A DNA stretch of 64,000 bases from positions 54,072 through 118,071 of the forward strand of contig JBBQLI010000001.1 of NCBI GenBank assembly GCA_038327765.1, read 5' to 3'. The DNA is from Candidatus Limnocylindrales bacterium. Its GTDB lineage: Bacteria; Chloroflexota; Limnocylindria; Limnocylindrales; CSP1-4. Position numbers and translations under genes: made by a program. Of the stretch, positions 1,955 to 19,096 are shown piece by piece (within the stretch, counting starts at the first letter, position 1; the number at the start of each line of letters is the position of its first letter). The notes under the pieces were generated by a model. The model saw only the letters and a program-made list of their open reading frames with translations, was not told where the DNA came from and did no database searches.

Positions 1955-2853
1955 GCGGCGACGTCTCGATCGGGATCAAGACGTCGCCACAGGAAGTCGA
2001 CTGGCCCACCCTGGAGGCCGCCTGGGGGCGGATCGGCGAGCACGCGGTGTTCGACAGCGTGTGGATGAACGACCATCTGACCAACCCGCTCCTGCCCCGC
2101 GCCGGGGCATCGTGGGAAGCGCTGACGGCCGTCTCGGTGCTCCTGCACCACGTCCACGGGAAGTCGGTGGGTCATGCGGTCCTGTCCGCGACGTTCCGCC
2201 ACCCGGCCGTGCTGGCAAAGGCGATCGCGCTCCTCGACCACGCGACCGGCGGCCGATTCATCCTGGGGCTGGGGGCCGGGTGGGTGGAGCCGGAACACGT
2301 GCCGTTCGGGATCCCGTTCCCGCCCATGCCCGAGCGGTTCGACCGCTTCGAGTCGGCTGTCCACGTGATCCAGGCGCTCGGATCCGCCCAGGCACGGACC
2401 GCCGCCGGCGTCACCCGGCCCGACCGCTTCTACCCGCTCGTCGGCGCCACCAACGATCCGCCGCCGCTGACGCCGGGCGGACCTCCCGTCTGGCTGGGTG
2501 GACAGAAGCCACGTGGCATGGCGCTCGCCGCGGCCGTCGCCCAGGGCTGGCTCCTGCCGGCCGTCACGCCTGACAAGGCCGCCACGGACATGACCTATTT
2601 CGCCGCGCGACGAGACGACCTGCTGGCGGCCTTCGCGGCCATCGGACGGGATCCGGCCGGGTTCACGATCGCGGCCCAGGTGCCGGCCGGCACGACCGCC
2701 GCGTCTCGTCGGGAAGGGTTGCGAGCCGCCCGCGACGCCGTCCGCATCGGCGCGACCCACGTGATCATCGGCATGCCGCCCCAGCTCGGTGCGACGGGCG
2801 TGGACCTCGTCGCCCGCGAGATCGCCGAGCCGCTGCGGGACGCCATCGGATGA
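1951..2853 (+). CDS. LLM-class flavin/F420-dependent oxidoreductase (luciferase-like monooxygenase family)
   Basis: ATG at 1951 overlaps the ilvD stop (ATGA). Product has SVWMNDHL...FRHPAVLAK...[12 protein letters not shown] motifs typical of the luciferase-like family. The track shows this frame as the 3' part of a long spurious ORF. Confidence 0.7.
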
Positions 2854-3803
2854 GCATCGAGGTCCGGACGGCCAACACCGGCACCGACGACCTGGCGACG
2901 ATCGCCCGGATCATCACGATCGCTCGTCCTGATGATCCGACCACCGTCGACGAGATGCGCTGGAGCGATGCCACGTACCCGGGCAGCCGACGGTTCATCG
3001 GCACGCTCGACGGCGAGGACGTGGGGGTCGGGACGGTCGGCCGGATCCACGCCTATCCGCCCGAGTTCGACGCGCTCTGGGCCACGCTGGACGTCCTGGC
3101 GGGCGCGAGGCGACGCGGAGTCGGCACGGCCCTGCTCGCGACGATCAGGGCGGCGACCATCGAGGCCGGCAAGTCGGAACTCCACGTCCCGGTGTCGGAC
3201 GGCCGACCCGAGGCGGTGGCCTTCCTCCTCCGGCGCGGCTTCACCGAATACGAGCGCGCCGCGATGGTCGACCTTCGTCTCGCCGGTCTCGAGCGTCCGG
3301 CGATCGGCCTGGCTGCCGGCCTGCGGCTGGTGACGCTGGAGAGTCGACCCGACCTCGTCCCGGGCGTGCATGCCGTGGCGCTCGAAGCCTTCGACGATAT
3401 CCCCGGCGCGGACGACCCGATGGCCGCCGGTGATCTCGCCGAGTTCCGGGCCCGCGATGTCGACCGCGCCATCATCCCGTCGTGGGGCTTCGTCATGGCT
3501 GTCGACGATGTCACGGACCAGGTGGTCGGCTACGCCTCACTTGCCTTCGACCCGGGCTCGTCGACCGTCGCCTACCACGACATGACCGCGGTCCTGCGTG
3601 CGCGGCGCGGGCAGGGTGTCGCCACGGCCCTCAAGGCGGCGACGATCTCGGCCGCGATGGACCACGGCCTCGAGCGTCTCTACACGGGCAACGACGTCGA
3701 CAATGCGCCGATGCGCGCCGTGAACGCGCGCCTCGGCTATCGGCCGCTCCCGGATTGGCTCACGATGCGCGGTCCGGCGAGGCACGGCATGATGACGCCA
3801 TGA
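2850..3803 (+). CDS. GNAT-family N-acetyltransferase with two tandem acetyltransferase domains (MshD-like architecture)
   Basis: 317 aa with two R/Q-x-x-G-x-G/A acetyl-CoA motifs (RRRGVGTALL and RRGQGVATAL). ATGA overlap with the upstream gene. Confidence 0.7.
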   Translation: MSIEVRTANTGTDDLATIARIITIARPDDPTTVDEMRWSDATYPGSRRFIGTLDGEDVGVGTVGRIHAYPPEFDALWATLDVLAGARRRGVGTALLATIRAATIEAGKSELHVPVSDGRPEAVAFLLRRGFTEYERAAMVDLRLAGLERPAIGLAAGLRLVTLESRPDLVPGVHAVALEAFDDIPGADDPMAAGDLAEFRARDVDRAIIPSWGFVMAVDDVTDQVVGYASLAFDPGSSTVAYHDMTAVLRARRGQGVATALKAATISAAMDHGLERLYTGNDVDNAPMRAVNARLGYRPLPDWLTMRGPARHGMMTP

Positions 3804-4042
3804 CGGACGACAGCCGCCACCTCCCGCCCGACCCGGTCGCGTATGACGACGTTCGCAACGTCCATGCCCGGGCGCGCGGGCTGGCGGCGCCGTACATCGC
3901 CGGCGGCCGGGATCCGGACCCCGTGGCAGCCGGTCGCGAAGAGCGGTACTACGGGAAGCTTCTCGTCGGGATGGTCGCGTTCCTCATCTTCGGGGGCTTC
4001 GTGATCGGCGCCGCGATCGCCATCTTCCGGATCGGGGTTTGA
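3801..4042 (+). CDS. small membrane protein, hypothetical
   Basis: ATG at 3801 overlaps the GNAT stop (ATGA). 80 aa with a C-terminal hydrophobic helix (LLVGMVAFLIFGGFVIGAAIAIF). Confidence 0.4.
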
Positions 4043-5475
4043 GCAGGTCGACCGTGGTCCCGTCCGGCGCGACCGATGCCGCGCGCTGGAGCGATGCGCA
4101 TGACGACCTCGTTGCCACCCTGCGTGAGCTGATCAGGATCCCATCGGTCAATCCACCGCCGGCGGACGCCCCAGACGGGGAGCTGCAGGCGGCCCGCCTC
4201 ATCGCGGATCGGCTGCAGAGCTGGGGCCTGGCACCCGAGGTGATCGAGCCCGTCGCCGGGCGCGGCTCGGTCCACGTCCGTCTCCGTGGCGACGGCAGCG
4301 GCGGCGAGCCGCTCCTCCTGCTGTCCCACCTCGACGTGGTCCCGGCCCCGCCGGAGCGCTGGTCGCACGCGCCATTCGAGGCGGAGATCGCGGACGGCTA
4401 CGTCTACGGCCGTGGCGCCGTGGACATGAAGGACATGGTCGCGCTCGAGATGGGCGTGGTCCGCCTGCTTGCGGCCGAAGCGCGGGCCGCGGGCCTCGAT
4501 CCCGCCCACGACCCGATCCCCGGCCTTCGCCGCGACGTCCTGTTGACCGTGACGGCCGACGAGGAGGCCGGCGGGTCGGCCGGTGCCGGCTGGATCGTGG
4601 TGCACAGGCCCGAGTGGCTTCAGGCCGCCGGCGCCCTGAACGAATGCGGCGGCGTGTCGATGACCGTGGGCGGCCGGCGGTTCTACCCGATCCAGGTCGC
4701 GGAGAAGGGCTACATCGCCTATCGCATCGCCGTCCGGGGCACGTGGGGTCATGGGTCGATGCCTCGCGAGGACAACGCCGCGCTTCTCGCCGCCCGCGTC
4801 ATCGAGGCGGTCTCCGTCCCGGGACCCATCCGCGTGACGCCGGTCATGACCCGGTTCCTCGAGGCGGCCGCGGACGCGCTGCCCGCGGCCGCCGCCCGTA
4901 CCCTGCGGGGGCTGCTCGCGGAGGACCCGGCCCGCGCCGAGGCTGCCCTCGAGGCCATCTGCGAACCCATGTACGCGCGGGCACTCCGAGCGCTCCTGCG
5001 CGACACGGCCAGCCCCGATGTCGTCCATGCCGGGATCAAGTACAACGTGATCCCCGGCGACGCCACGATCGAAGTGGATTGCCGCGTGCTGCCCGGGATG
5101 TCCGAGCCGGACATGCGCGCCGAGCTCGAGCGACGCATCGGCCCGGAGCTCTGCGCCGTGTGCACGATCACGCTGATCGTCAAGGGCGGACCGGTCGAGT
5201 CGCCGGCGGATGGGCCGCTCTACGACATCCTGACCCAGACGCTGCGCGACCACGATCCCGAGGCCGTCCCGCTGCCCGTCATGGCGCCGATCGCCACCGA
5301 TGCGACCAGCATGGCCGTGCTGGGCGTCCCGACGTACGGCTTCGTGCCGCTCCGCAACGATGCCGACGAGCGGTTCATGGAGCGATTCCATGGTGTCGAC
5401 GAGCGGGTCTCCCTCGATGCGCTCCGGTTCGCCCTGCCCGTCCTCTACGACGTGGTTCGCCGCTTCTGCGGCTGA
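4039..5475 (+). CDS. M20 family metallopeptidase (dipeptidase/desuccinylase-like)
   Basis: 478 aa with LLSHLDVVP, GRGAVDMKD and TADEE motifs of the M20/ArgE/DapE family. Confidence 0.8.
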   Translation: MSRSTVVPSGATDAARWSDAHDDLVATLRELIRIPSVNPPPADAPDGELQAARLIADRLQSWGLAPEVIEPVAGRGSVHVRLRGDGSGGEPLLLLSHLDVVPAPPERWSHAPFEAEIADGYVYGRGAVDMKDMVALEMGVVRLLAAEARAAGLDPAHDPIPGLRRDVLLTVTADEEAGGSAGAGWIVVHRPEWLQAAGALNECGGVSMTVGGRRFYPIQVAEKGYIAYRIAVRGTWGHGSMPREDNAALLAARVIEAVSVPGPIRVTPVMTRFLEAAADALPAAAARTLRGLLAEDPARAEAALEAICEPMYARALRALLRDTASPDVVHAGIKYNVIPGDATIEVDCRVLPGMSEPDMRAELERRIGPELCAVCTITLIVKGGPVESPADGPLYDILTQTLRDHDPEAVPLPVMAPIATDATSMAVLGVPTYGFVPLRNDADERFMERFHGVDERVSLDALRFALPVLYDVVRRFCG

Positions 5476-5481
5476 CGGCAC

Positions 5482-5697
5482 TCAGCGGGGTTCGCTCGGA
5501 CCACCCTCCGGGGCCCGGACGCGGATCAGCTCATCGCACGTGGTGCAGGCGTAGAGCTGGCCATCCACCCACTCCCGCTCCGGGTCGTGGTCACTCACAT
5601 CGTGATGCGACCGCCGTCGCTCCAGCGCGCCCCAGGTCCCATCCTCATGCCGGTGTTCGATCCGGAGCAGGACCTCCGCGAGACGACTCTGATCCAT
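5482..5697 (-). CDS. small hypothetical protein (71 aa) downstream of the MarR gene
   Basis: ATG preceded by GGAGG 9 nt upstream. Contains a single CTTC motif. 46-bp gap from the MarR gene on the same strand. Confidence 0.4.
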   Translation of the reverse strand: MDQSRLAEVLLRIEHRHEDGTWGALERRRSHHDVSDHDPEREWVDGQLYACTTCDELIRVRAPEGGPSEPR

Positions 5698-5742
5698 GGT
5701 GTGACGCCTCCATGCCGTTCGGCGCGAGCGTACGCCGTCTGT

Positions 5743-6324
5743 CTACTCCTGTGGGTCGCGGGGCGTCCGGATGAGCCGCCCGCGACGGTTGATGGCATGG
5801 GTCGCGAGCGCGGCGACACCCATCGCCACGATGGCGCGCTCTGCGGTCGGGAGCGGCCGCACTGCCGACAGGAATTGGTCCGCCCTCGAGCGATCCACGA
5901 CGCGCAGGATGGCGTGCCCGCGAGGGGTCAGGCGGAGCGTCCGCTGGCGGCGATCCTCATCCTCCTGGTGGCGTTCCACGAACCGGCGCCGGACCAGACC
6001 GTCGATCAGTCGGCTGGTCGCCGACGGTGAGCGTCCGATCTCCTCCGCGAGCTCCCCGACGGTCATCGTGCTGCCGTCGGCGAGCACATAGAGGGCGGCC
6101 AGCTGGGTGAACCCAAGTCGCAACTCGCCGAGCTGGCTCGCGAACCCGATCACCAGCTCGCGCCACAACGCCCGACCCATCGCCACGCGTTCGCTGATCT
6201 GGCGGACGTTCGGGATGCGGTTCCCCGCCGCCAGCACCGGCGCCGACAGGTCGGCCTCGAACCGTCGCGCGACCGCCCGCCGGGGAACGGCGTGACGACG
6301 CGCAGGAACCGCGGATTCGCTCAC
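5743..6324 (-). CDS. MarR-family transcriptional regulator
   Basis: Winged-helix MarR core (LTPRGHAIL...). Start uncertain: TTG at 6360 in the track, GTG at 6324, or ATG at 6180. Divergent from fabD. Confidence 0.75.
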   Translation of the reverse strand: MSESAVPARRHAVPRRAVARRFEADLSAPVLAAGNRIPNVRQISERVAMGRALWRELVIGFASQLGELRLGFTQLAALYVLADGSTMTVGELAEEIGRSPSATSRLIDGLVRRRFVERHQEDEDRRQRTLRLTPRGHAILRVVDRSRADQFLSAVRPLPTAERAIVAMGVAALATHAINRRGRLIRTPRDPQE

Positions 6325-6413
6325 GCTGAAAGGGTACGGTCCCGGCAGAGGTCCGTGCAACCGTGCATGCGAATCGGGGGTGGAGCGCGACCTCCGGACT
6401 ACCCTTGACCACG

Positions 6414-7376
6414 ATGACGACGTTCGCTTATGTCTTCCCCGGCCAAGGGTCGCAGTCGGTCGGCATGGGGCACGCCGTGGCCGAGGTCTCCCCAGGTGCT
6501 GCGGCCGTGTTCGAGGCCGCGGACGCAGCCCTCGACGAGCCGATCACCCGGGTCGCGTGGGACGGACCCGCCGAGCGCCTCGACCTGACCGAGTTCGCAC
6601 AGCCGGCGATCCTTGCAACGTCGATCGCGATCCTCGCCGCGATGAGGGAGCGCTGGGCCGCCGCAGGTCTCGCCGAACCGCAGCCGCGCTTCGCCGCAGG
6701 CCACTCCATGGGCCAGTATTCCGCGCTCGTCGCTGCCGGCGCCCTCGATCTGGCCGATGGCGTGCGCCTTGCGCACACGCGCGGCCTCCTGATGCAGGCC
6801 TCCGGTGGTGGACGGGATGGATCGATGGCGGCGCTCATCGGCCTCGATGACGCCCGCATCCCCGAGGTCGTTGCGGCGGCGTCCGCGCACGGCATCTTCG
6901 TCGTCGCCAATCGCAACGCCCCGGGCCAGGTCGTGGTGTCAGGTGAGCGGGCGGCCGTCGAGGCCGGCGCCGAGATCGCCAGGAGCCTGGGCGCGAAGCG
7001 CGCCATCGTGCTGCCGGTGTCAGTGGCGGCGCACTCCCCGCTGATGGCCGGGGCCGCCGACGGGATGCGCGCCGCGCTCGCGGGCGTCGCGTTCCACGAT
7101 CCCCATCCGACGTTGCTCGCCAACGCGGACGCGACCGAGATCGCCACCGCGGACGGCTGTCGGGCTGAACTCATCGAGCACCTGACCGCCGGCGTCGACT
7201 GGGTGGGCGCCGTCGGAACGATGCGCGCCGCAGGGGTCGACACATTCATCGAGGTCGGGCCCGGCAAGGTGCTGACCGGACTCATCCGGCGCATCGCCCC
7301 CGACGCCGAGGTCATCGCCGCCGACGATCCAGCGACCGCCCAGCGCCTCCTCGAACTCGCCGCATCGCCCGTCTGA
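6414..7376 (+). CDS. fabD: malonyl-CoA:ACP transacylase
   Basis: MTTFAYVFPGQGSQ...GHSMGQYSA motifs. The track ORF starts at GTG 6363, but the conserved N-terminus begins at ATG 6414. Confidence 0.9.
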   Translation: MTTFAYVFPGQGSQSVGMGHAVAEVSPGAAAVFEAADAALDEPITRVAWDGPAERLDLTEFAQPAILATSIAILAAMRERWAAAGLAEPQPRFAAGHSMGQYSALVAAGALDLADGVRLAHTRGLLMQASGGGRDGSMAALIGLDDARIPEVVAAASAHGIFVVANRNAPGQVVVSGERAAVEAGAEIARSLGAKRAIVLPVSVAAHSPLMAGAADGMRAALAGVAFHDPHPTLLANADATEIATADGCRAELIEHLTAGVDWVGAVGTMRAAGVDTFIEVGPGKVLTGLIRRIAPDAEVIAADDPATAQRLLELAASPV

Positions 7377-7410
7377 ATCGTCCCCGCAACCCAAAGAAGG
7401 AGCCGCCAAC

Positions 7411-8685
7411 GTGCGCAGACCCGACTACGACCGACGAGTCGTGGTGACCGGCCTCGGTGTCATCAGCCCCGTCGGGAATGACGTCGATACCGCCTGGACC
7501 AACCTGCTCGAAGGTCGTTCCGGGCTCGACACCATCACCCATTTCGATCCCGCGCCCTACGAAGCCAAGCTCGCCGGCGAGGTCAAGGACTTCAGCGCAT
7601 CCGCCTGGATGGACGCGAAGGCAGCCCGACGCAGCGAGTCGAGCATGCATTTCGGCGTCGCCGCCGCCAAGCAGGCCCTGGCCGACTCCGGCTTCGAACT
7701 CACCGACGAGAACCGCACCGAGGTCGGAGTCGTCTTCGGCTCCGGCGCCGGTGGGCAGACCCTCATGATCGACAACTACGCGGCCCTCCACGAGCGTGGG
7801 ACCCGCGCCGTCGGCCCGACGTTCATCGCGAATGCCCTGGTCGACAGCTGTTCGGGGATGATCGCCATCGAGACCGGCGCGATCGGCCACAACGTGTGCA
7901 TGGTCTCGGCCTGCGCTACCGGCACGCACAACATCGGCGAGGCGGCCGAAGCGATCCGGCGCGGCGACTGCATCGCGATCATCGCGGGCTCCACCGAGGC
8001 GCCCATCCTGGAGGTCGGGCACGCCGGCTTCTCGAACATGCGCGGGATGGGCATGCCCCGCCCAGGCGAGGGACCTGCGACCGTGTCGCGGCCGTTCGAC
8101 CTCACCCGCGACGGGTTCGTGCTGGGCGAGGGTGCCGGGTCGCTCTTCCTGGAAGACCTCGAGCTCGCCAAGGCGCGTGGCGCGAAGATCTACGCGGAGG
8201 TCATCGGCTACGGCTCGGCGGCCGATGGCTGGGACATGATCCAGCCGATCGCAGCTGGCGCCGGCTCCTCCCGAGCGATGAGGATGGCGCTCGAGCGACG
8301 CGGTGTGCCCGCCGACGAGATCGACCTCATCAACCCCCACGGGACCTCCACGCCGCTCGGCGACAAGCGCGAGGCCGAGGCGATCTGGACCGTCTTCGGC
8401 CCGCGCTCGGCATCGTCGGCTCGCTCGCTCGCGATCAGCGCCACCAAGTCGATGACGGGCCACATGATGGGCGCGGCCGGCGCGTTCGAGGCGTTCGCGA
8501 CGGTCAAATCGATCGTCCACCAGGTGGTTCCCGGCACGATCAACTTCCGCGAGCCGGACCCCGAGGCCGATGTGTGGGTCATCAGCGAGACGCAGGACCT
8601 GCCGATCCGCTACGGGCTCTCGAACAACATCGGTCTGGGCGGCCACAACGGCGCCGTCATCTTCAAGCGCTACGACGGGGACTGA
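7411..8685 (+). CDS. fabF: beta-ketoacyl-ACP synthase II (KasA/FabF-like)
   Basis: 424 aa. KAS active-site Cys in SACATG, with HGTSTPLGD and GHMMGAAG motifs. GTG start with AAGAAGGAG upstream. Confidence 0.9.
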   Translation: MRRPDYDRRVVVTGLGVISPVGNDVDTAWTNLLEGRSGLDTITHFDPAPYEAKLAGEVKDFSASAWMDAKAARRSESSMHFGVAAAKQALADSGFELTDENRTEVGVVFGSGAGGQTLMIDNYAALHERGTRAVGPTFIANALVDSCSGMIAIETGAIGHNVCMVSACATGTHNIGEAAEAIRRGDCIAIIAGSTEAPILEVGHAGFSNMRGMGMPRPGEGPATVSRPFDLTRDGFVLGEGAGSLFLEDLELAKARGAKIYAEVIGYGSAADGWDMIQPIAAGAGSSRAMRMALERRGVPADEIDLINPHGTSTPLGDKREAEAIWTVFGPRSASSARSLAISATKSMTGHMMGAAGAFEAFATVKSIVHQVVPGTINFREPDPEADVWVISETQDLPIRYGLSNNIGLGGHNGAVIFKRYDGD

Positions 8686-10031: not shown

Positions 10032-10521
10032 GCGACCGACCCTCGTACGTCTCGATCGCGGCGATGTGCGCCGCCGACAGGGCGACCGGCCGCGCCGTCG
10101 CATAGTCGTAACGAACCAGCACGGATTCGCTCAGCGCGACCAGGCCGGGCGCGGACCCGGGTAGTCCGGCGAGCAGGCGATGCTCCAGCGTGAATGACGA
10201 GCGACCGATCCGGGTCGCGCGCGTCTCGACCTCGACGATCTGGCCGTGGAACGCGGGTGCGCGATAGGTGATGCGCGCTTCGGCGAGGATGAGGCTCTCG
10301 GCACCCTCCGTCCCCGGCGCGATGGGCTCGCCCGTGACGTCGGTCCAGTACTGGATCCGAGCGATCTCGCAGTAGGTCAGGTAGACCGCGTTGTTGACGT
10401 GGCCCATCGCGTCGGTGTCTGCGAAGCGGATCGCGATCGTGACGCGATGGGGGAAGTCGCCCGCAACGTCATACGGATCGAGTCCGTCGCGAGGACGCGC
10501 GTGCGGATGCGGGTGGGTCAC
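10018..10521 (-). CDS. hotdog-fold acyl-CoA thioesterase (4HBT/YbgC-like)
   Basis: FADTDAMGHVNNAVYLTYCE motif. 14-bp convergent overlap with the KAS gene. Start chosen at GTG; the track shows TTG at 10539. Confidence 0.7.
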   Translation of the reverse strand: MTHPHPHARPRDGLDPYDVAGDFPHRVTIAIRFADTDAMGHVNNAVYLTYCEIARIQYWTDVTGEPIAPGTEGAESLILAEARITYRAPAFHGQIVEVETRATRIGRSSFTLEHRLLAGLPGSAPGLVALSESVLVRYDYATARPVALSAAHIAAIETYEGRSLRRP

Positions 10522-10531
10522 GGGACCGAGT

Positions 10532-12820
10532 CTACGCAACCCGGCGGCGGGCGCGCAGGCGCAGCGAGTTCAACAGCACCGCCACCGACGACGACGCCAT
10601 GGCCCCTGCGGCAAGGGCCGGATCCAGCCTGATCCCGAACCATGGGTAGAGCGCACCCATGGCGACCGGGATGAGCAGGACGTTGTAGGCGAACGCCCAG
10701 AACAGGTTCTGACGGATCACCCGCATCGTGGCGCGCGACAGCTCGATCGCCCGTGCCACGGCCCGCGGATCGCCCCCGACCAGCGTGACGTCCGAGGCCT
10801 CGATCGCGACATCGGCGCCGGTCCCGATGGCAACACCAAGATCGGCCTGGGCGAGGGCGGGGGCGTCATTGAGGCCGTCGCCGACCATCGCCACCCGACG
10901 TCCCGCGGCCTGCAGCCGCTCGATCAGGGCGGTCTTGTCCGCCGGTCGCGCGTCGGCGACGACGTGGTCCGCCGTGATGCCGACCGCGCGCGCGACGACG
11001 GCGGCCGTCGTCACGCCATCCCCGGTGGCAAGCCAGACCTCGATGCCCTGCGCGACCAGCGCCTCGACAGCCGCGGCCGCCTCCGTCTTGAGCGGATCGA
11101 CGATGCCGAACAGCCCGATCGCGCGGCCGTCGACCGCGACGAAGGCGACCGTGCGCCCGTCCGTGCCGGTCGCGCGAGCCGCATCCGCGAGGTCCGTGAG
11201 GTCGATCCCCCGGTCGGTCAGCCAGCGGCCGCTGCCAACCAGCACGGTCCGCTCGCGCGTCTCGTCGCTGACGACGGCCTCCACGCCGCCGCCGGCCGTC
11301 GCCGCGAACCGCGTCGCCCGATGAAAGCCCAGTTCGTCGCGATTGGCGCGGATGACGATGGCGGCGCCCAGCGGATGCTCGCTGCCGCGTTCGGCGGCCC
11401 CGGCGAGGTCCAGCAGCGTGGCGGTCGTGACGCCGTCGACCGTCGCCACGGCATCCACCCTGGGCCGACCCAGCGTGAGCGTACCGGTCTTGTCGAGGAC
11501 GACCGTGTCGATGCGGTGGGCGATCTCGAGGGCCTCCCCTCCGCGGATGAGGATGCCGCTCTCCGCCCCGCGTCCGGTCCCCACCATGATCGCGGTGGGT
11601 GTCGCCAGACCCATGGCGCACGGACAGGCGATCACGAGGACCGCGATCGCGGCGACAAGGCCGTGTGTCAGGCGCGGCTCCGGTCCGAGCACCAGCCACG
11701 CCACGAGCGTCACGGCGGCCACGGCCAGGACCACCGGCACGAACACCTCGGCGATGCGGTCCGCCAGCCGCGCGATGGGCGCCTTCGACCCCTGGGCACG
11801 CTGGACGAGTGCCACGATCCGGGCGAGGGCCGTGTCGCGCCCGACCCGGGTCGCGCGCATGACGAAGGTCCCGGTCGTGTTCATGGTGGCGCCGATGACC
11901 TCGTCGCCGGGTCCCTTGACCGCCGGCAACGGCTCGCCGGTAAGGAGTGCCTCATCGACCGCGGAGGACCCCTCGATCACGACGCCGTCGACCGGGACCT
12001 TGTCGCCTGGCCGGACGCGCAGGAGGTCCCCGACGACGATGGCGTCGAGCGAGACCTCCATCTCCTCGTCGCCGACGACGCGCCGCGCCGAGGTGGCACC
12101 GAGCGCCGCGAGTCGCCGGATCGCCCCGGTGGTCCGGGACTTGGCGCGGTGTTCGAGGTAGCGTCCCAACAGGACCAGACCGATGATCAGGGTGGAGCTG
12201 TCGAAGTACGTGACGGGCTCAAGACCGGCCTCGCTGACGAGGTGCGGCGCCAGCGTGATCACCACGCTGTACCCCCAGGCCGCGGTCGTGCCGATGGTCA
12301 CGAGGGTATCCATCGTGCTGGTGCGGTGGCGCGCCGCGCGCCAGGTCGAGCGGTAGAACCGCCGACCGGCCCAAGCCTGGACGATCGTCGCCGGCATGAT
12401 GACCAGGAGGTTGCGCGACTCCATCGCAAACCCGGCGATGGGGAGGGCCATGACGGCCATGATCCCGGCCGCCACCACGATCGAGACGACGGATCTGACG
12501 AGGATCGCGCGGGCCTCGCGGTCGCGCGTGGCGTCCTCGCCGGACAGCTCCTCAAGGACCGTCTGGCGGGCGGCGCCCGAGGCCGGCGGAGCCGAGCGCA
12601 CGTCGTAGCCGGCCGCTTCGACCGCACCGACGAGCGCGGCTCGGTCGGTGGTCTCGGCCAGGTAGTGGATGGTTGCCTGCTCGGTCGCGAGATTGACGGT
12701 CGCGTCGACCACGCCCGGGGTCTTGCGCAAGAACCGTTCGATCCGGTTCACGCACGACGCGCAGGTCATCCCTTCGATGGGAAGGACGGCTTCGCTGGGT
12801 GTGGGCACGCTGGTCATCAT
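10532..12820 (-). CDS. copA: copper-translocating P1B-type ATPase
   Basis: N-terminal [15 protein letters not shown] domain, CPC, DKTGTLT, HP, and GDGxND motifs. The ATGATG start at 12820 gives 763 aa. The track's upstream extension is Arg/Pro low-complexity. Confidence 0.9.
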
Positions 12821-12835
12821 ACTCCCAGGGAGTAT
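12819..12835. promoter_or_regulatory. perfect 17-bp palindrome ATACTCCC-A-GGGAGTAT overlapping the copA RBS and start codon; candidate metal-repressor operator
   Basis: Read directly. Its GGGAG also serves as the copA Shine-Dalgarno. A near-identical palindrome occurs at 44046-44060. Confidence 0.5.
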
Positions 12836-12927
12836 AGCACCCGGTCCTCGGGCGTCCGCCCGGACGAGGCCCGAGCACCAGGGTCCGTGGCCGGACCGGT
12901 CGTCCCGCGGCGAGGCACACTGTCGCG

Positions 12928-13512
12928 GTGACGACCGACAGCCGACGCGGCGCCCTGATCCGGACGATCGCCGGGCCGGATGGGCCCATCCATCTCGGGG
13001 CGTCCGACGCGGGGATCGTGGCCGTGGAACAGGCGAGCGAACGGGACAGATTCGCTGACGGGCTCGCACGGCGGCTCCGGGCTCCGACCGAGGCGGACCA
13101 CGACGCCCCGACCGACGACCCTCGCCGTGGCCACCTCGACCGTGCACAGCGGATCCTCGGCGACCTGCTGGCGGGCCGACCGGCGGCCGCCACCGTCCCT
13201 ATCGACCTCGCCGATCGACCCGAGTGGGATCAGCGCGTCCTGGTCGCGGTCAGCGACATCGGCTGGGGCGAGACCGCGAGCTACGGGGAGATCGCCCGAC
13301 GGATCGGAGCAGCGGGTGCCGCCCGTGCCGTCGGCGGCGCACTCGGCCGGAACCCCGTGACGCTGCTCATCCCGTGCCACCGCGTGATCGCCGCGGATGG
13401 CACGATCGGGGGCTACGGCGGTGACGCGTGGGGGTCGCGCGAACGCGCGCTTCAGCGCAAGCGGACCCTCCTCCATCGCGAAGGCGTCACCGTTGCCGTC
13501 CGGGCCGGATAG
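12928..13512 (+). CDS. ogt: methylated-DNA-protein-cysteine methyltransferase
   Basis: PCHRVI active-site motif and C-terminal HTH. GTG start. Confidence 0.85.
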
Positions 13513-13552
13513 ACTCCGCGCGAACCCGTCGCCGCCCTTGCTGGAGGCATGA

Positions 13553-15391
13553 TTGACCGCCGCGATCGCGCCCGCCCCGTCGATGTTCGCGGTCTTCCGT
13601 CGGCGCGATTTCTCGCTGCTGTGGATCGCCCAGCTCGTCTCGACGGCAGGCTCGGCGCTGACCGATCTGGCGGCCGGCATCTACGTCTACCGCGTGACCG
13701 GCTCCGCGCTGGCTGTCGGCCTGACGCTCATGGCCACCGCTGTCCCGAGCCTCATCGTCGGTCTCCTGGCGGGGGTCTACGTGGATCGCCACGACCGACA
13801 GCGGATCATGATCGGGACCAACGTGGTCCAGGCGGTGGTCGTCGGCCTGATCGCTGTGGTGCTGGGCATCCAGGGGCTCGCGCTGCCTGGTCTGTACCTG
13901 CTGATCTTGCTCAACGCGGGCGTGAAGCAGTTCTTCGACCCGGCGCATGACAGCCTGATCCCCGAGATGGCCAGCGACGAGGAGCTGGGCGCGGCCAACG
14001 CGTTCCTGTCCATCGCAGCCTTCGGGTCGACCGCGATCGGGTTCGCCGGCGCCGGTCTCCTCGCCAGCACGATCGGGCTGACGTGGGCCTTCATCATCGA
14101 TGCCGCGACCTTCGTCTTCTCGGCCGGCTGCATCCTCGTGATGCGCAAGATCGAGATGCCGGCTCCGGAGGAGGACGCGAGCGTCGCGGTCATCGTGGCG
14201 AATCTGAAGTCGGGCGTCTCGACGCTGTTCGGCACGCCGGTCATCCGCTCGCTGTTCTTCGTGGGCGCCTTCATGTTCGTGGCGTTCGGGCTGTGGAACG
14301 TGCTGCTCCTGCCGTTCTCGATCCGCGTCCTCGGCGCCACGGAGTTCGAATACGGTCTCCAGGAAGGCCTCACTTCGGTCGGGTTCGTGGTCGGCTCGCT
14401 GCTGATGGCACGGTTCTCGGGTCGCCTGCCCGAGCCGGCGTGGATCGTCGTCTCGATGGTAGGGATGGGCATCGCCGGCCTCGGCTACGCCACGTCGACC
14501 AGCGTCCCGTTCGCGATCCTCCTGGTGACCCTCAGCGGACTCCTCCAGCCACCGTCGTCGGTCTCGCGCTCGGTCCTGCTCCAGCGCAACACGCCCCGCG
14601 AGATGCGCGGGCGGGTCTTCTCGGCGTTTTCCGTCATGCGCGACGTGATCTTCCTGATCGGGATGGCCGGCGCCGGCCTTGCCGACATCATCGATATCCG
14701 CCTCCTGATCGTGGTGGCGTCGTGCCTGCTCTTCGTCTCGGCCGGGATCACGCTTGTGGCGCCCGGATTGCGGGTCTCGACCTGGGGCGCAGCCGCAGGT
14801 CGGTTGCGTGCCGCGGCGGCGGGCAGTGCCGGCATGTCTGGCGTGCCGCTCCGCGCCGCGACCCTCGGCGACTTCGATCGGCTCGTGGGTCGCCTGGCGA
14901 CCTTCGCGAAGCTGTCACCGGCACAGCGCTCGGCATTCGTCGGGGCCGCGACCGTCCGCGACGTCCCGGAGGGGACACGGATCGTGGAACACGGCGAGGT
15001 CGCCTCGAACGCGTACTTCGTGCTGGACGGCTCGGCGACGGCGGGCATCCCCGAGGAAAGCGGCTATCGCGGGCTCTCGACGATGGGCCCGGGCGACTTC
15101 TTCGGCGAGATCGCGGCTCTGACCGGGTCCACACGGACCGCGGATGTCGTCGCCGACACGGACTCGGTCCTCATGGAGGTCCCGGCCGATTCGCTCCGCG
15201 CCACCATGTCCGTCCCCGAGATCCAGCGGCTCGTCCTCTCGACGCTCAGCTCGCGGCTGATCCGGACGGAGTCCGCCGACCTGCCGCGTCTCGCCGGCGT
15301 CGACCAGGACGACCTGCGCGACCTGCGCACGCCACGACCGGCCGTCACAGCCCTCCCGGCCGCGGACGAGGATGCGGTGTCACCAAGCTGA
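13553..15391 (+). CDS. MFS transporter fused to a C-terminal cyclic nucleotide-binding (CAP_ED) domain
   Basis: About 12 TM segments followed by GEVASNAYFVLDGS...GPGDFFGEIAAL, a cNMP-binding beta-roll. TTG start 6 nt after GGAGG. Confidence 0.8.
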   Translation: MTAAIAPAPSMFAVFRRRDFSLLWIAQLVSTAGSALTDLAAGIYVYRVTGSALAVGLTLMATAVPSLIVGLLAGVYVDRHDRQRIMIGTNVVQAVVVGLIAVVLGIQGLALPGLYLLILLNAGVKQFFDPAHDSLIPEMASDEELGAANAFLSIAAFGSTAIGFAGAGLLASTIGLTWAFIIDAATFVFSAGCILVMRKIEMPAPEEDASVAVIVANLKSGVSTLFGTPVIRSLFFVGAFMFVAFGLWNVLLLPFSIRVLGATEFEYGLQEGLTSVGFVVGSLLMARFSGRLPEPAWIVVSMVGMGIAGLGYATSTSVPFAILLVTLSGLLQPPSSVSRSVLLQRNTPREMRGRVFSAFSVMRDVIFLIGMAGAGLADIIDIRLLIVVASCLLFVSAGITLVAPGLRVSTWGAAAGRLRAAAAGSAGMSGVPLRAATLGDFDRLVGRLATFAKLSPAQRSAFVGAATVRDVPEGTRIVEHGEVASNAYFVLDGSATAGIPEESGYRGLSTMGPGDFFGEIAALTGSTRTADVVADTDSVLMEVPADSLRATMSVPEIQRLVLSTLSSRLIRTESADLPRLAGVDQDDLRDLRTPRPAVTALPAADEDAVSPS

Positions 15392-15493
15392 CAGGCTCGC
15401 GGTCGCACGTCGACTCGTCGCAGGTCACGGCGATGGCGTAGGGTGCACCCAACGACCGGTCCACACCACCCCGGTCAGGAGAGGTACCGCGAG

Positions 15494-15697
15494 ATGCAGA
15501 AGAAGATCCAGCTTCCCAAGGAGCAGCTCATCGATCCCGAGGAGGCGGCCAGACGCCTCATCGACGAGAACGATGTCGAGGGTCACGGGGTGCCGAGCGA
15601 CATGTCGCTCGAGTCGCTCTCGCGTCGTCTGCCGTCGACCGGCGGGGAATTCCTCGACGAGGACGACCAGAGCCCGAACGGAGTCCGCTCCCGCTGA
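15494..15697 (+). CDS. small acidic protein, hypothetical (67 aa)
   Basis: ATG with AGGAGA about 9 nt upstream. Highly acidic; no recognisable domain. Confidence 0.35.
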   Translation: MQKKIQLPKEQLIDPEEAARRLIDENDVEGHGVPSDMSLESLSRRLPSTGGEFLDEDDQSPNGVRSR

Positions 15698-15761
15698 GCG
15701 CACCGCGCGCCCATCCCCTGACGACCGCCCGGTCCTGGCCGGGCGGTCGATCCATGCCCGC

Positions 15762-16607
15762 TCAGGCGGGCGTCTCGCGCGGATCGGCCTCCTCGTTCGC
15801 GGTGGCGGCGAGCAGGCTCTTGATCTCGAACGGGCTGGCGTCCGGGTAGCGTGCTCGAAGCAGCGCGGCATAGCCAGCGAGATGCGGAGCGGCGAACGAG
15901 TTGCCGGTCGCCCGGATGCGCGTCCCGCCTCGCCACGCGACGTCGACGTCGACCCCGTGCGCGCCGAATTCCACCGGCGGGGACGGGTTGTAGAACCAGA
16001 CGGTCGGGTCGCCGACATCGTGCGCGGCGGTCGAGATGACCGTGGCGAACAGGGACGGGTACGACGGGCCCGGGACGTTGTTGGCGGCACTCACGAGGAG
16101 GGTGTTCGCGAAGTAGGCCTGGTCGGCGACCTCGTGGAAGAGTCCATGCAATGCGTCGCTCCGCGACGAGAGACTCAGGTTGACCACCCCGATCCCCTGT
16201 CCGATCACCCACTCCAGCGCGGCCAGGAACGCCAGGCCCTGACCGCGATTGTCCGGACCCAGGACCCGGATCGAGACGAGGGACGCGCCTGGCGCGATCG
16301 CATGGATGATCCCCGCGCAGGCGGTCCCGTGACCCACGACATCCACACGCGTCGGGTCGTCGACCACCACCGCCGCGTCGCCGTCGATGGTCACGTGCAC
16401 GCTGCGGCTGAGCCGTCCGCCGACCGCCGGATGGTCGCCCTCCACCCCGGAATCGATGATGGCCACGGTCACGCCGCGCCCATCACTCGCCCCGAAGACG
16501 GTGTCGCGATCGAGGCGTCCGAACGGCCGGTCGCGGGTCAGCCCCGTGCGACCGCCGGATGCGAACGGTTCACTCCATGCGGGGAGCGACAGACGCGATC
16601 CGGTCAT
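15762..16607 (-). CDS. S8 family subtilisin-like serine peptidase without signal peptide or propeptide
   Basis: Catalytic triad context IIDSGV (Asp), HGTACAG (His), GNSFAAPHLAG (Ser). ATG at 16607 overlaps the stop of the GAF gene (ATGA). 281 aa. Confidence 0.8.
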   Translation of the reverse strand: MTGSRLSLPAWSEPFASGGRTGLTRDRPFGRLDRDTVFGASDGRGVTVAIIDSGVEGDHPAVGGRLSRSVHVTIDGDAAVVVDDPTRVDVVGHGTACAGIIHAIAPGASLVSIRVLGPDNRGQGLAFLAALEWVIGQGIGVVNLSLSSRSDALHGLFHEVADQAYFANTLLVSAANNVPGPSYPSLFATVISTAAHDVGDPTVWFYNPSPPVEFGAHGVDVDVAWRGGTRIRATGNSFAAPHLAGYAALLRARYPDASPFEIKSLLAATANEEADPRETPA

Positions 16608-17395
16608 GATCCGGGTGGCCGGCGGAGCCCCCGTCGTACGGTCCGCCGCAGCACCGCGTCGAGGACATCCACGACCAGGTCGGCGTCGTCGCCATCGATG
16701 GCGTGGAGGCGGGCGAGCCGATCGGCGATCCGCCACACGGGCGAGCCATCGGGCGTCCCGCTGCCACTCGCTGCCGAGACGAGGTCGTCGATGGCCGCCT
16801 CGTCAAGCGAGCCGGGTGCGGCCGCCGCGACAGCGAGCAGGGCATCGCGCAGGAGACGCGCACCGTCGCGCTCGAGACGGGTCGCCCCGATCGCGACGCT
16901 GGCCTGGCGTGCGAAGACCGTGGCGAGTTCGATATCGCGCAGCCCGAAGCTGGTCCCGTCGGTCCGGTCGAGGACCTCGAGGACGCCCAGGATGCCGGCA
17001 TCGTCGACGAGCGGGACGGCCAGGAGCGAGCGCGGGACGTAGCCGGTCTGCGTGGCGGCGTCGCGTCCGAACCGTGCATCGGCGGCGACGTCTGCGATGG
17101 CCAGGGGCGCACCGGTCGCGAACACATAGCCGGCCACGCCGTCGCCCGGCGCGATCGACAGTCCGATCACGCCCTGGCCGCGCTCGCCGGCCGCGACCCG
17201 GAAGACCAGCCGATCGGTGGTCGGGTCGTAGAGCGCCAGTGAGGCGGCCTCGGCGGCGAACATCGCGACGGTGGCCTCCACGATGCTGTGCAGCACCGCC
17301 TCGCCGCCCGGTGACTCCAGGCGACTGGCGGCGTCGATCCGGCTCGCGACGGCGGCGAGCGCGGCGAGACTCGCGTCGCGTGTCTGGTCGTTCAT
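16604..17395 (-). CDS. GAF domain protein
   Basis: 263 aa. N-terminal GAF fold pattern (VAGYVFATGAPLAIADV...LAVPL) plus a roughly 100-aa C-terminal region. ATGA overlaps with both crp (upstream) and the S8 peptidase (downstream). Confidence 0.75.
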   Translation of the reverse strand: MNDQTRDASLAALAAVASRIDAASRLESPGGEAVLHSIVEATVAMFAAEAASLALYDPTTDRLVFRVAAGERGQGVIGLSIAPGDGVAGYVFATGAPLAIADVAADARFGRDAATQTGYVPRSLLAVPLVDDAGILGVLEVLDRTDGTSFGLRDIELATVFARQASVAIGATRLERDGARLLRDALLAVAAAAPGSLDEAAIDDLVSAASGSGTPDGSPVWRIADRLARLHAIDGDDADLVVDVLDAVLRRTVRRGLRRPPGS

Positions 17396-18114
17396 CGGCG
17401 CACGGTCCCGGCCAGTCGCAGCGGATCGGGGATCACGAGCACCTCGCCCTCGAACCTGAGGAGGTCGGCCGCGACCAGGTCGGCCAGGAGCCGGTTCACC
17501 GACTGGCGGGAGCCGCCGATCATCCCGGCCAGCTCTGCCTGGGTATATGGCCAGGACAGCCGGACTTCGGCGGTCGACGGCCCGACCGTATCGGCGCCGA
17601 TCATCCGCAGGAGGTGATTGGCGAGGCGGCCCGGGAGATCGAAGAAGTGCAGATCTTCGACCTGTCCGGTCAGGCGCCGGATCTCACCGGCAAGGGTGGC
17701 CAGGAGGACTCGACGCATGCCTGGCTCGGTATCGAGCAGACGGTCGAACGCATCACGCCGCAGGATCAGGGTCAGCGACGGTTCGAGCGCCTCGGCCGTC
17801 GCGGACCGCGGCGCATCGTCGAGCAGGGCCAGCTCCCCGAAGAACCCGCCTGGGCCGATCGTGGTCAGGATGGCCGCCTCCGAGCCGTCGCTTGCCGGCA
17901 GAAGGATCTTGACGGCACCGCTGACCACGACGAACAACGCATCGCCGGCGTCTCCTGCGTGGAAGAGGACCTCTCCCCGGCGTGACCGCCGTTGACGCAT
18001 CGCCTCCACACAACGGTCGAGCGACCGCTCATCGATGTCCGCGAACAGGCGACAGGCGCGGAGCGCGTCGTGCCCGATGGTGCGGTCGAAGGCGGTCAGG
18101 ACCATGCCCGCCAT
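17392..18114 (-). CDS. crp: Crp/Fnr family transcriptional regulator
   Basis: cNMP-binding domain (GPGGFFGELALL) followed by a C-terminal HTH (TQAELAGMIGGSRQSVNRLL). Confidence 0.85.
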   Translation of the reverse strand: MAGMVLTAFDRTIGHDALRACRLFADIDERSLDRCVEAMRQRRSRRGEVLFHAGDAGDALFVVVSGAVKILLPASDGSEAAILTTIGPGGFFGELALLDDAPRSATAEALEPSLTLILRRDAFDRLLDTEPGMRRVLLATLAGEIRRLTGQVEDLHFFDLPGRLANHLLRMIGADTVGPSTAEVRLSWPYTQAELAGMIGGSRQSVNRLLADLVAADLLRFEGEVLVIPDPLRLAGTVRR

Positions 18115-18149
18115 CGTAACAACCGGCGCGTTCGCGCCGATCGGGTGCG

Positions 18150-18446
18150 CTACGGGCGAGGCACCGGGCGCATGGGATAGACGCCCACCACGATCGGCGT
18201 CCGGGGATCGAGCGAGAGCTCATAGCCGATCTCGCCCGCACGCAGCAGCTCACCCAGCAGCGCGCCTTCGCGGGCCGGCAATCCGACGAAGATGTGGCCT
18301 GGATCGAGGACGACCTCGTGGACGTCATCATCCTCGCCGGTGATCGCGAACCGGCGGCGCAGTTCGTGCATCGGCACATACGGGCGACTCTTGATGAAGC
18401 GCCGAAGCTGCGGGGCGGTACACGGGGAGCTGTGATCGGGGCCCAT
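18150..18446 (-). CDS. hypothetical protein (conserved-looking C-terminal about 98 aa of a longer low-complexity ORF)
   Basis: The track ORF 18150..19163 has a 240-aa Pro/Ala/Arg-rich N-terminal part that overlaps the 3' end of the downstream peptidase gene, so only the C-terminal segment from ATG 18446 is called. Confidence 0.3.
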   Translation of the reverse strand: MGPDHSSPCTAPQLRRFIKSRPYVPMHELRRRFAITGEDDDVHEVVLDPGHIFVGLPAREGALLGELLRAGEIGYELSLDPRTPIVVGVYPMRPVPRP

Positions 18447-19096
18447 GGGGCGCGACCCTGCGTTCTGGACGTGGGCCGGACCAGGCCCGTTCGGAGGCGC
18501 GCCGAACGGTGCCCCCGGCCCGCGCGCCGTGGCTGGCAGCGGCCGTTGGCCAGAAGCGTGGTCAAGGCCGGCGCCGGCGATCGCGCGATCCGCATGCGCT
18601 TCGGAGCCGGCCGCGGAGCCTTGGTCGTCCGCCCGATCCGAGGCGGATGGTGTCGTGACGGGGACCACGGGGGCGACAGGATCGGCGTGGAGAGGTTCGA
18701 TCGGCCGGGCGGCCGCGCTGAGCGGCTCGGGGTCAGCACGACGCTCCTCGCGCTCGGCTGGCGCGCCGATCGGCCGACCCGCCGACGACGCTGCGGGCGC
18801 GGGTCGTGGACTCGCGCTGTGCTCGATCGCGTCGTCGCGCTCGGAGCCCGCGGCACGGACGGGTCGCGGCTCCGCGGGCGACCCAGGTCGGGCCCCCTCG
18901 TGCCGGGCGCGCTCGTGATGCGCACGGCCGTGGCGCCGGCTCATCGGCCGACGTCCCCGGGAAGGGCATCCCGAGTGGTTCGAGCGCCGCAGGAACGGCG
19001 CGACAACAGGCTGGTCATGAGGCTCTCGGACGAAATGCGGCGACGCGGTCGGCGTCCACCCGCTGGCCGATGATACCGCACGGTCCCGTGGACCCC

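Follow-up and report, generated by a model that had tools for sequence, protein, structure and literature searches.

A conserved GAF–subtilase cassette of Limnocylindria and its candidate DVEGH-motif precursors in a cyclic-nucleotide-wired neighbourhood

Kex2 (kexin) is an S8 protease that recognises a short invariant motif on the non-prime side of its cleavage site and releases many peptide copies from a tandem-repeat precursor, as for the α-factor and fungal Kex2-processed repeat proteins. The intracellular subtilisins (ISPs) of Bacillus are cytoplasmic, lack a classical I9 prodomain, and are controlled by a short N-terminal extension carrying a conserved LIPY/F motif. In Myxococcus xanthus, the signal-less subtilisin-like protease PopC is held by its operon partner PopD until the stringent response, and its cleavage activity produces an intercellular signal (PMC6434023), while QhpE, the leader peptidase of quinohemoprotein amine dehydrogenase biogenesis, acts in the cytoplasm ahead of ABC export (PMC7876137). 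The protease PatA recognises the sequence G(L/V)E(A/P)S in multi-core cyanobactin precursors (PMC10885120). Here, we describe a locus that recalls each of these systems, found in a 64-kb stretch of contig JBBQLI010000001.1 of Candidatus Limnocylindrales bacterium (Chloroflexota; G+C ~70%), referred to below as the window. A leaderless S8 subtilase is encoded in an overlapping operon with a Crp/Fnr-family regulator and a GAF-domain protein, and a small acidic open reading frame (ORF) next to it carries the motif DVEGH. On balance, the locus probably encodes a Crp-controlled, GAF-regulated cytoplasmic S8 endopeptidase that processes DVEGH-motif precursors within a cyclic-nucleotide-wired module.

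The three genes lie on the minus strand, starting with the crp-type gene (17392–18114, 240 amino acids (aa)), followed by the GAF gene (16604–17395, 263 aa) and the S8 gene (15762–16607, 281 aa counted from the ATG inside an ATGA). Both junctions are 4-nucleotide (nt) ATGA overlaps that can be read in the sequence, the crp stop and GAF start at 17392–17395 (...cgccgATGAacg...) and the GAF stop and S8 start at 16604–16607 (...ggatcATGAccg...), and Pfam domains match all three products, in line with the original prediction of an ATGA-linked Crp/Fnr, GAF and S8 trio. A search with a 7-sequence S8 alignment returned 80 genome loci, all from Limnocylindria, and these species representatives together with three contigs form a set of 83 Limnocylindria loci; distant lineages were gathered by other routes, and a further 80 metagenome loci were obtained with the actinobacterial branch of the S8 family as query. 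Among the 80 species-level Limnocylindria genomes, in which the S8 proteins share 58–85% identity, many also have constant flanking genes, namely an M24 peptidase gene, an O6-alkylguanine-DNA methyltransferase-type gene and a Cu-ATPase gene. The GAF gene is directly upstream of S8 in 80 of the 83 loci, the remaining three having no flank, and a Crp gene precedes GAF in 72 of the 74 loci with room for it. Because NTGA overlaps recur at both the GAF/S8 junction (53/80) and the Crp/GAF junction (52/72), the overlapping arrangement is far from chance. GAF and S8 thus form a conserved, translationally coupled and sometimes fused pair (see below), which is co-transcribed with Crp in the Limnocylindria lineage.

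The S8 protein matches Peptidase_S8 (PF00082) over residues 43–275 with an E-value of 9e-28 and 97.8 bits, against a cutoff of 21.8. Asp52, His93, the oxyanion Asn177 and Ser237 align with D32, H64, N155 and S221 of subtilisin BPN' and are invariant in 57 relatives, leaving the Asp/His/Ser triad intact, and the family is marked by the motifs PAWS near the N-terminus, GHGTACAG, and TGNSFAAP, which holds Ser237. No I9 propeptide was matched by Pfam, and a signal peptide h-region was not found either; the N-terminal 42 residues are hydrophilic, and the highest 10-residue Kyte-Doolittle mean within the first 50 residues is only 0.44 and coincides with the first beta strand. The protein has no twin-arginine (Tat) motif and no hydrophobic termini, and signal, Tat or transmembrane features are absent from all 57 family members. 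A longer ORF from GTG 16736 was rejected as the S8 gene, as homologues of about 275 aa begin at the same ATG within ATGA. The original prediction had argued for a subtilase with an intact triad but no signal peptide or I9 propeptide, to be abandoned if the gene order were not conserved and a cryptic signal or Tat motif emerged; the order proved conserved, and no such motif was found.

In general, the named S8 families nearest to this protein are precursor-processing enzymes, although it belongs to none of them. QhpE (NF049966) is the best NCBIfam match at 7.5e-31, but scores 107.2 bits against a cutoff of 165, and the neighbourhood has no qhp genes. Mycosin (TIGR03921) also stays below its cutoff (103.8 vs 278.75 bits), the hydrophobic termini are missing and no ESX genes are nearby. 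The match to the PatA/PatG cyanobactin protease model (TIGR03895) is weak, with 20.3 bits against a cutoff of 421, and the protein is single-domain with a precursor motif that is different though similar; a Streptomyces homologue reaches 2e-8 with this model. An ISP was likewise rejected, as the N-terminal sequence is MTGSRLSLPAWSEPFASGG... and what is conserved across the family is P9, A10, W11, S12 and F15 instead of LIPY/F. A classical secreted subtilisin is ruled out, the protein having neither signal peptide nor I9 propeptide. The AlphaFold2 model has a predicted local distance difference test (pLDDT) score of 86.5, with the PAWS segment forming short helices at moderate confidence, and the closest solved structures are calcium-loop-deleted variants of subtilisin BPN' at a template modelling score of ~0.66–0.70.

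Beyond Limnocylindria, GAF and S8 are adjacent in 6/6 distant loci. The pair occurs with 1- or 4-nt overlaps in Herpetosiphonaceae, in Thermomicrobiaceae and on four further metagenomic contigs, with S8 proteins ~45% identical to that of the window, and in reversed order, S8 then GAF with a 4-nt overlap, on plasmids of Miltoncostaea oceani and Streptomyces sp. NBC_00184 (Actinomycetota). In the metagenome loci, GAF adjoins S8, either upstream or downstream of it, in essentially every contig that has flank. When 1.8 billion cluster representatives were searched, 214 clusters were obtained at E<1e-30, among them natural GAF–S8 fusions (P0252, P0258, P0283), S8 family members with a C-terminal Ser/Thr kinase domain (~605 aa) or an N-terminal LuxR/GerE helix-turn-helix (HTH) (among P0250, P0254, P0261, P0268 and P0293), and a 967-aa protein (P0273) with S8 at the C-terminus of an ABC exporter, a layout like that of a peptidase-containing ABC transporter. 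The existence of natural fusions argues for a direct functional link between GAF and S8 and for a cytoplasmic location; adjacency in essentially every flanked locus and in both orders points to the same link, and the lack of export features together with the kinase, HTH, GAF and ABC-exporter fusions to the same location. S8 peptidases are common and 4-nt overlaps frequent in high-GC bacteria, so it could be argued that an ordinary secreted or housekeeping subtilase merely sits beside unrelated regulators, the overlaps being a by-product of a compact high-GC genome. This is scarcely credible given the uniformly signal-less family, the pairing with GAF across phyla, and the flanking motif genes and operator specific to the module, which are described below. 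Chance adjacency is excluded.

The GAF protein consists of an N-terminal helix, a GAF core (~30–173) and a conserved four-helix C-terminal tail (178–257). Pfam assigns the GAF domain to residues 32–169 (4e-19), followed by ~90 residues without a family, in which W221, D225, L245 and R250-R251 are conserved in family alignments. While the core is modelled by AlphaFold2 with pLDDT above 90, the tail reaches only 51–78, and this low-to-moderate confidence is consistent with a region that becomes ordered on partner binding; a fold search with the tail gave no informative match. The GAF–S8 fusions have no such helical tail, and because they do without it, the tail may be a docking element used when GAF and S8 are separate proteins. 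The original prediction had raised the idea of an inhibitory prodomain surrogate, and the missing tail in fusions would suit docking at least as well.

A candidate substrate lies just beyond the operon. The 67-aa acidic ORF MQKKIQLPKEQLIDPEEAARRLIDENDVEGHGVPSDMSLESLSRRLPSTGGEFLDEDDQSPNGVRSR (15494–15697, plus strand) is convergent with S8 and preceded by a Shine-Dalgarno sequence, AGGAGAGG, at 15477–15484, 9 nt from its ATG. Its codons gat gtc gag ggt cac (15572–15586, plus strand) encode DVEGH, proposed as P5 to P1 of an S8 cleavage site. Orthologues are called genes in three loci (L001–L003) and were detected by tblastn in ~20 loci, and neither this ORF nor eight other DVEGH proteins matched any Pfam or NCBIfam family at E<=1. 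The motif, (D/E)-V-(E/Q)-G-(H/Y), emerged from comparing small ORFs beside the pair in other loci, and the strict pattern [DE]V[EQ]G[HY] occurs once only in the six frames of the window, inside the 67-aa ORF. It is present beside the operon in 68/83 Limnocylindria loci, and loci without a strict match have variants such as DVSGH, DTEGH or DTSGH, giving a range of (D/E)-(V/T)-(E/Q/S)-(G/A)-(H/Y/F) in module-flanking small genes. Measured from the S8 start, about 195 of the 199 matches are confined to -2500 to -500 and +500 to +2000. The first zone covers positions shortly before crp or in the crp–GAF interval, the second the stretch shortly after S8, and the other ~8 kb of each locus are essentially empty. 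Hence, the module is almost always flanked by DVEGH-motif small genes, and its conserved core is GAF–S8 with at least one DVEGH gene. On the Thermomicrobiaceae contig (L086/L087), GAF–S8 is closely followed by a convergent gene for a Barstar-domain protein (6885–7436, minus strand), and no ORF of the DVEGH type was found on this contig.

Upstream of the 67-aa ORF, a perfect palindrome, TGTCACCAAGCTGACA (15378–15393), lies 101 nt from its ATG and overlaps the stop codon of the preceding transporter gene. It is the only perfect TGTNN-N6-NNACA in the window. Within 939 kb (the window plus the Limnocylindria loci), 37 perfect TGTC[GA]-N6-[CT]GACA palindromes were counted and none with the other 14 TGTNN half-sites. 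A first DVEGH motif follows 160–325 nt downstream for 28 of the 37, and at 163–205 nt for 25, while several of the remaining palindromes precede variant-motif ORFs. A 16-base-pair (bp) 5-6-5 palindrome beginning with TGT has the format of a Crp/Fnr site, and the co-encoded Crp-family protein is therefore the obvious candidate to bind TGTCR-N6-YGACA. That protein matches cNMP_binding (PF00027; 3e-25, 88 bits) and HTH_Crp_2 (PF13545; 9e-13, 48 bits), and a phosphate-binding-cassette-like FGELAL...RSATAEA can be read in it, although it is not an equivalog of E. coli CRP (76 vs 266 bits). The original prediction had placed the module at 15762–18114, and the main functional clue was found outside these bounds, in the DVEGH ORF, the palindrome and the transporter gene. 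Together, these would turn a protease without a known target into a precursor-processing protease with a candidate substrate family. Of the earlier interpretation as a ligand-controlled intracellular protease, the leaderless S8 without propeptide and its tie to GAF stand, but the likely substrate had been missed.

Many motif ORFs are tandem arrays in which species-specific, hypervariable spacers alternate with the invariant motif. For example, locus L021 carries ten copies of SGSLRKAIPDEDVEGH (3780–4233), a 48-bp unit repeated 9.5 times at 100% nucleotide identity, while other arrays consist of five copies of GHKVKAVEDEDVEGH (L046), six copies of QKVRKHERIADDDDVEGH (L065), or units reading AKQRATGDDDDVEGH (L081) and AAKPAAKPAAKPEVEGH (L090, L149, L157). 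In L088, a 60-aa protein (6901–7083, minus strand) has three EEVEGHGSHFRNPSD repeats (GSHFRNPSD...EEVEGH); its assignment as Rv2632c-like was rejected, with 24.4 bits against a Pfam cutoff of 25 and a match that is probably compositional. Repeat number and spacer sequence vary from species to species almost without exception, which implies that the arrays expand, contract and turn over rapidly. Two conserved C-terminal types were also observed, neither of which is present in the window. DVEGH proteins encoded upstream of crp (L011, L016, L019, L021, L022, L027, L031 and L035, at ~3500–4400 on the plus strand, and also L170 and L173) have a conserved basic helical C-terminus after the last motif, such as MIGTMNPLLARELARAKERDVQRAASRGNL... 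or WMPDAGSSMRLAKARNSDIEREARQHQLANEARQ...KRTHQKG, and a second type, encoded downstream, ends in ...DVEGHFGxIxSPxSRGE.

Two further groups of motif proteins accompany the more distant cassettes. In loci of the actinobacterial type, S8 and GAF are followed by a small D-V-E-(G/A)-H ORF on the opposite strand and then by a gene for a major facilitator superfamily (MFS) transporter with a cyclic-nucleotide-monophosphate (cNMP)-binding domain. A third group has motifs that end in Tyr or Phe and separate a helical leader from a core of the kind typical for ribosomal natural products; examples are three precursors rich in aromatic residues in L091, the radical-SAM/M16 cluster of L084, and also L144 and L160. 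L089 encodes an NHLP/Frankia_peptide precursor with a LanKC-like enzyme. On the Streptomyces sp. NBC_00184 plasmid (L093; NZ_CP108138.1), positions 1801–8355 form one overlapping operon encoding, in order, a radical SAM protein, an iron-containing redox enzyme, a 69-aa 'aroma-sacti cluster' protein, a 1052-aa cyclase-AAA_16-TPR protein matching the TOMM kinase/cyclase model TIGR03903 at 4e-47, S8 and GAF; the aroma_sacti_dom protein beside the cyclase-S8-GAF genes carries EPEVQAH. This is an apparent cluster for a ribosomally synthesised and post-translationally modified peptide (RiPP) that carries the GAF–S8 cassette. Models of RiPP precursors were matched by distant-locus precursors only, namely NHLP/Frankia_peptide in L089 and L092 and aroma_sacti_dom in L093.

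Several features of the motif would fit a cleavage site. In 245 distinct motif contexts, acidic residues are enriched at P8–P6 and the entropy jumps to 3.4–3.9 bits at P1' after His; the low entropy of P5–P1 is built into the search pattern, whereas that of the flanks is not. This reads as a signature of non-prime-side recognition. Many window-type ORFs end 0–4 residues past a terminal DVEGH. Val at P4, Gly/Ala at P2 and an aromatic or imidazole side chain at P1 suit the subsites of classical subtilisins. In addition, the motif bears a close resemblance to the PatA site G(L/V)E(A/P)S. Ser147 of S8 occupies the place of BPN' Gly127, in the 125–127 strand that lines the S1 pocket, and this residue is Ser in 111/111 loci with His-type motifs and Gly in all Tyr/Phe-type loci, comprising six by automatic typing plus L084 and L144 on inspection. 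Such covariation is suggestive of P1–S1 co-evolution and is as would be expected from it.

The fit of the motif to subtilisin subsites would also suit a different role, in which the DVEGH proteins are inhibitors, chaperones or decoys of S8, acting like PopD or a trans-acting propeptide, with the motif filling the cleft until ligand-bound GAF relieves the block. The protease has no I9 propeptide of its own, leaderless subtilases are restrained by short peptides or partners, as for PopC/PopD (PMC6434023), and the association between motif and module is strict. Yet, at least ten identical repeats per protein and the extreme spacer variability would be hard to explain for an inhibitor, the motif precedes lanthipeptide, radical-SAM or aromatic-rich type cores in distant relatives, and the DVEGH genes have an inducible-looking operator of their own, making this role unlikely.

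The cyclic-nucleotide context of the pair is real and recurrent. In the window, an EntS/MFS_3-like transporter of 612 aa with a C-terminal cNMP-binding domain (MFS-cNMP) is encoded at 13553–15391 on the plus strand and is a candidate cNMP-gated exporter (Pfam MFS_1 1e-36, MFS_3 9e-26, and cNMP_binding 1e-16 at residues 469–552). Many Limnocylindria loci encode a protein of this architecture next to the S8/GAF pair, and in L088 and ~25 metagenome loci its gene is directly upstream or downstream of the pair and co-operonic with it. The cNMP domains of the Crp and MFS proteins match TIGR03896 weakly. Other neighbours related to cyclic nucleotides include ABC-cNMP and cNMP-SpoIIE proteins, stand-alone cNMP-binding proteins and response-regulator cyclases, and large cyclase-AAA_16-TPR (STAND) proteins are encoded near the pair in several loci. 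A cNMP-binding or cyclase gene was present in 30 of the 33 metagenome loci having at least 5 kb of flank. The GAF domain itself is, by sequence and predicted structure, closest to binders of cyclic AMP (cAMP) or cyclic GMP (cGMP): Lcd1 with cAMP (5w10, 2e-17), CyaB2 (1ykd), phosphodiesterase (PDE) PDE10A GAF-B (2zmf) and PDE2A (1mc0). The GAF family has an invariant TGYVPRS at a place where PDE-type GAF domains carry TGYxT(R/Q)S.

Cyclases and nucleotide sensors are also the parts of an anti-phage or conflict system, in which a STAND/TPR cyclase would sense infection and its cyclic nucleotide would activate a GAF-gated protease, following the logic of Pycsar or CBASS. Besides the cyclase-AAA_16-TPR genes adjoining the pair in several loci, domain-level PADLOC matches point in this direction, as S8 matches the 'subtilase' model at 2e-14 and IetS at 9e-7 over 39 residues, and the cNMP domains match Pycsar effector models. 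These matches are generic, however: no system-specific PADLOC model was matched, and the GAF protein had no match at all. Moreover, the constant flanking genes across many Limnocylindria genomes typify vertically inherited core genes and not defence islands, no cyclase is adjacent to the module in the window, and the DVEGH genes and operator would be left unexplained. A defence role is therefore very improbable.

The main rival explanation concerns the fate of the DVEGH proteins. Instead of releasing peptides, they may be cytoplasmic regulators, for instance with acidic repeats masking a basic C-terminal helix; GAF–S8 would cut them in a ligand-dependent manner, either activating or destroying them, and so act as a proteolytic switch triggered by cAMP. 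For the DVEGH proteins upstream of crp, the shared basic helical C-terminus (...NPLLARELARAKERDVQRAASRGNL... / ...MRLAKARNSDIEREARQHQLANEAR...) looks more like a functional module than a spacer; most Limnocylindria loci have no adjacent transporter, and the S8-kinase and HTH-S8 fusions point to intracellular signalling. On the other hand, an ABC exporter–S8 fusion exists, MFS-cNMP genes share operons with GAF–S8 in the loci named above, the motif lies at the leader/core junction of RiPP-type precursors in distant loci, and hypervariable, perfectly repeated cores typify released peptides. Taken together, we regard a regulator role as possible but rather doubtful; inhibitor or decoy and defence roles are less likely still.

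Returning to the precursor-processing reading, the order of events, including the cleavage position, the role and ligand of GAF, the binding of the palindrome, the export and the function of the peptides, is what we infer from the gene content. The Crp-family protein, answering cAMP or cGMP, would bind the palindrome and switch on the precursor gene at 15494–15697. The S8 protease would then recognise Val (P4), Gly/Ala (P2) and His (P1) and cut after His, liberating a single peptide, or many where the precursor is a repeat protein, all with ...DVEGH at their C-terminus. GAF may dock on S8 by its helical tail and gate or target the protease in response to a small ligand, with cAMP as the leading candidate. 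Finally, the MFS transporter with its cNMP-binding domain may export the product, and export via cNMP-gated transporters is likely in many lineages. It could further be speculated, tentatively, that soil Chloroflexota and Actinomycetota possess a so far unrecognised peptide-signal system gated by cAMP, as a bacterial analogue of Kex2/α-factor, in which species-specific peptides leave through cNMP-gated MFS or ABC exporters and TPR-STAND cyclases or other receptors feed back via cAMP, the cassette having been recruited elsewhere as the leader peptidase of several RiPP classes.

A number of observations weigh against the precursor-processing reading. The small protein of the window has a single motif, its second copy having decayed to LDEDDQSPNG, and the predicted peptides carry high charge and no modification, a combination uncommon among known bacterial pheromones and antibiotics. 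Both the MFS-cNMP gene and the window-type small ORF are present in part of the lineage only, and the two were rejected as the conserved core for that reason. The canonical CRP box TGTGA-N6-TCACA is not enriched (8 matches vs 12 expected). Pro121 of the GAF family presumably sits where cNMP-binding PDE GAF domains have a phosphate-contacting Thr. No solved structure is especially close to S8. Finally, the two states of S8 residue 147 largely separate two clades and could be explained by one ancestral change, and the covariation with the motif is suggestive rather than conclusive for this reason.

Other features of the region touch the module less directly. A GC-rich hairpin (15723–15748) with a 10-bp perfect stem, GACCGCCCGG/CCGGGCGGTC, and a 6-nt loop lies between the convergent S8 gene and small ORF and is possibly a bidirectional terminator without a T-run; a consensus promoter and terminator scan of 13300–18600, which requires a T-run that the hairpin does not have, returned nothing useful. 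On the other side of the operon, a conserved ORF of ~98 aa (...QLRRFIKSRPYVPMHELRRRFAITGEDDDVHEVVLDPGHIFVGLP...; 18150–18446, minus strand) separates it from the M24 peptidase gene, at a distance of 35 bp upstream of crp. Neither Pfam nor NCBIfam assigns this ORF to a family, and it is found in ~40 related loci at 63–87% identity; because its position differs in some of them (L067, L076), it is probably not part of the core module. In the region 10391–13200, antisense ORFs of 846, 272 and 213 aa overlap the gene for a Cu-type P-type ATPase (10532–13147, minus strand) and are typical high-GC artefacts rather than genes. The true start of the ATPase gene is probably further downstream than listed, since an O6-alkylguanine-DNA methyltransferase-like gene (12928–13512, plus strand) overlaps the listed 5' end.

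If the precursor-processing reading is true, the DVEGH-motif tandem-repeat proteins would make up a new ribosomal peptide precursor family that Pfam and NCBIfam lack, paired with a dedicated protease whose predicted cleavage rule is Val at P4, Gly/Ala at P2, and His or Tyr at P1. Cyclic-nucleotide signalling, through Crp, GAF, cNMP-gated transporters and STAND cyclases, would be joined to peptide processing, for which we found no described S8 case; literature searches on GAF with subtilisin/S8 (combined with Crp, cyclase or leader peptide), on DVEGH/EVEGH strings and on 'aroma-sacti' returned nothing relevant. The conserved Limnocylindria locus would also gain a role, in a class that is abundant in soil and freshwater and largely uncultured. 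As a sequence-specific, leaderless and possibly ligand-switchable subtilase, the enzyme could be useful for traceless tag removal, and the cassette could serve as a genome-mining handle for RiPP clusters, as it adjoins lanthipeptide, radical-SAM and aromatic-rich precursors in other phyla.

Among the known systems, PatA/PatE likewise combines a cytoplasmic S8 protease with a multi-core precursor, in which each hypervariable core is bordered by an unchanging recognition sequence. The PatA cut follows G(L/V)E(A/P)S (PMC10885120), which is similar to D-V-E-(G/A)-H at P4 to P2, but P1 is Ser there and His here, and PatG macrocyclase, heterocyclase and DUF domain are all missing from the present locus. 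No modifying enzyme accompanies the module in the Limnocylindria lineage; instead, it has a GAF partner, Crp and a cNMP-binding transporter, and its hosts are Chloroflexota and Actinomycetota. QhpE is similarly a small subtilase without signal peptide or propeptide that removes a leader in the cytoplasm before dedicated export (PMC7876137), yet it has no GAF partner, is reported to be single-turnover, and acts on an unrelated substrate, QhpC, and no qhpABCDFG genes occur here. PopC/PopD shares the signal-less subtilase and operon partner, whereas PopC is a 51-kDa protein with a long N-terminal region that is secreted as a protein, and no DVEGH-type precursor or cNMP link is known for it. The Bacillus ISPs differ in their LIPY/F motif, in place of which the present family has a PAWS...F segment and a separate GAF partner, and in being general proteases without dedicated precursor genes. 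In C39 peptidase-containing ABC transporters (PCATs) and the cNMP-domain 'bacteriocin-type transport-associated' proteins of TIGR03896, leader removal is coupled to export, as the ABC exporter–S8 fusion P0273 recalls, but the protease is C39 instead of S8, the site is a double glycine instead of DVEGH, and in the window, protease and transporter are separate proteins. Kex2 is eukaryotic, Golgi-lumenal and Ca-dependent, with a P-domain and dibasic specificity, so that the likeness is one of logic only and not of orthology. Each type of component, and the logic of an S8 protease cutting multi-core precursors at an invariant motif, is thus already known. What appears to be new is the obligatory GAF partner, the cyclic-nucleotide wiring, the DVEGH precursor family with its operator, and the distribution, as a syntenic conserved locus in Limnocylindria and as a cassette that accompanies several RiPP-type clusters of other Chloroflexota and of Actinomycetota.

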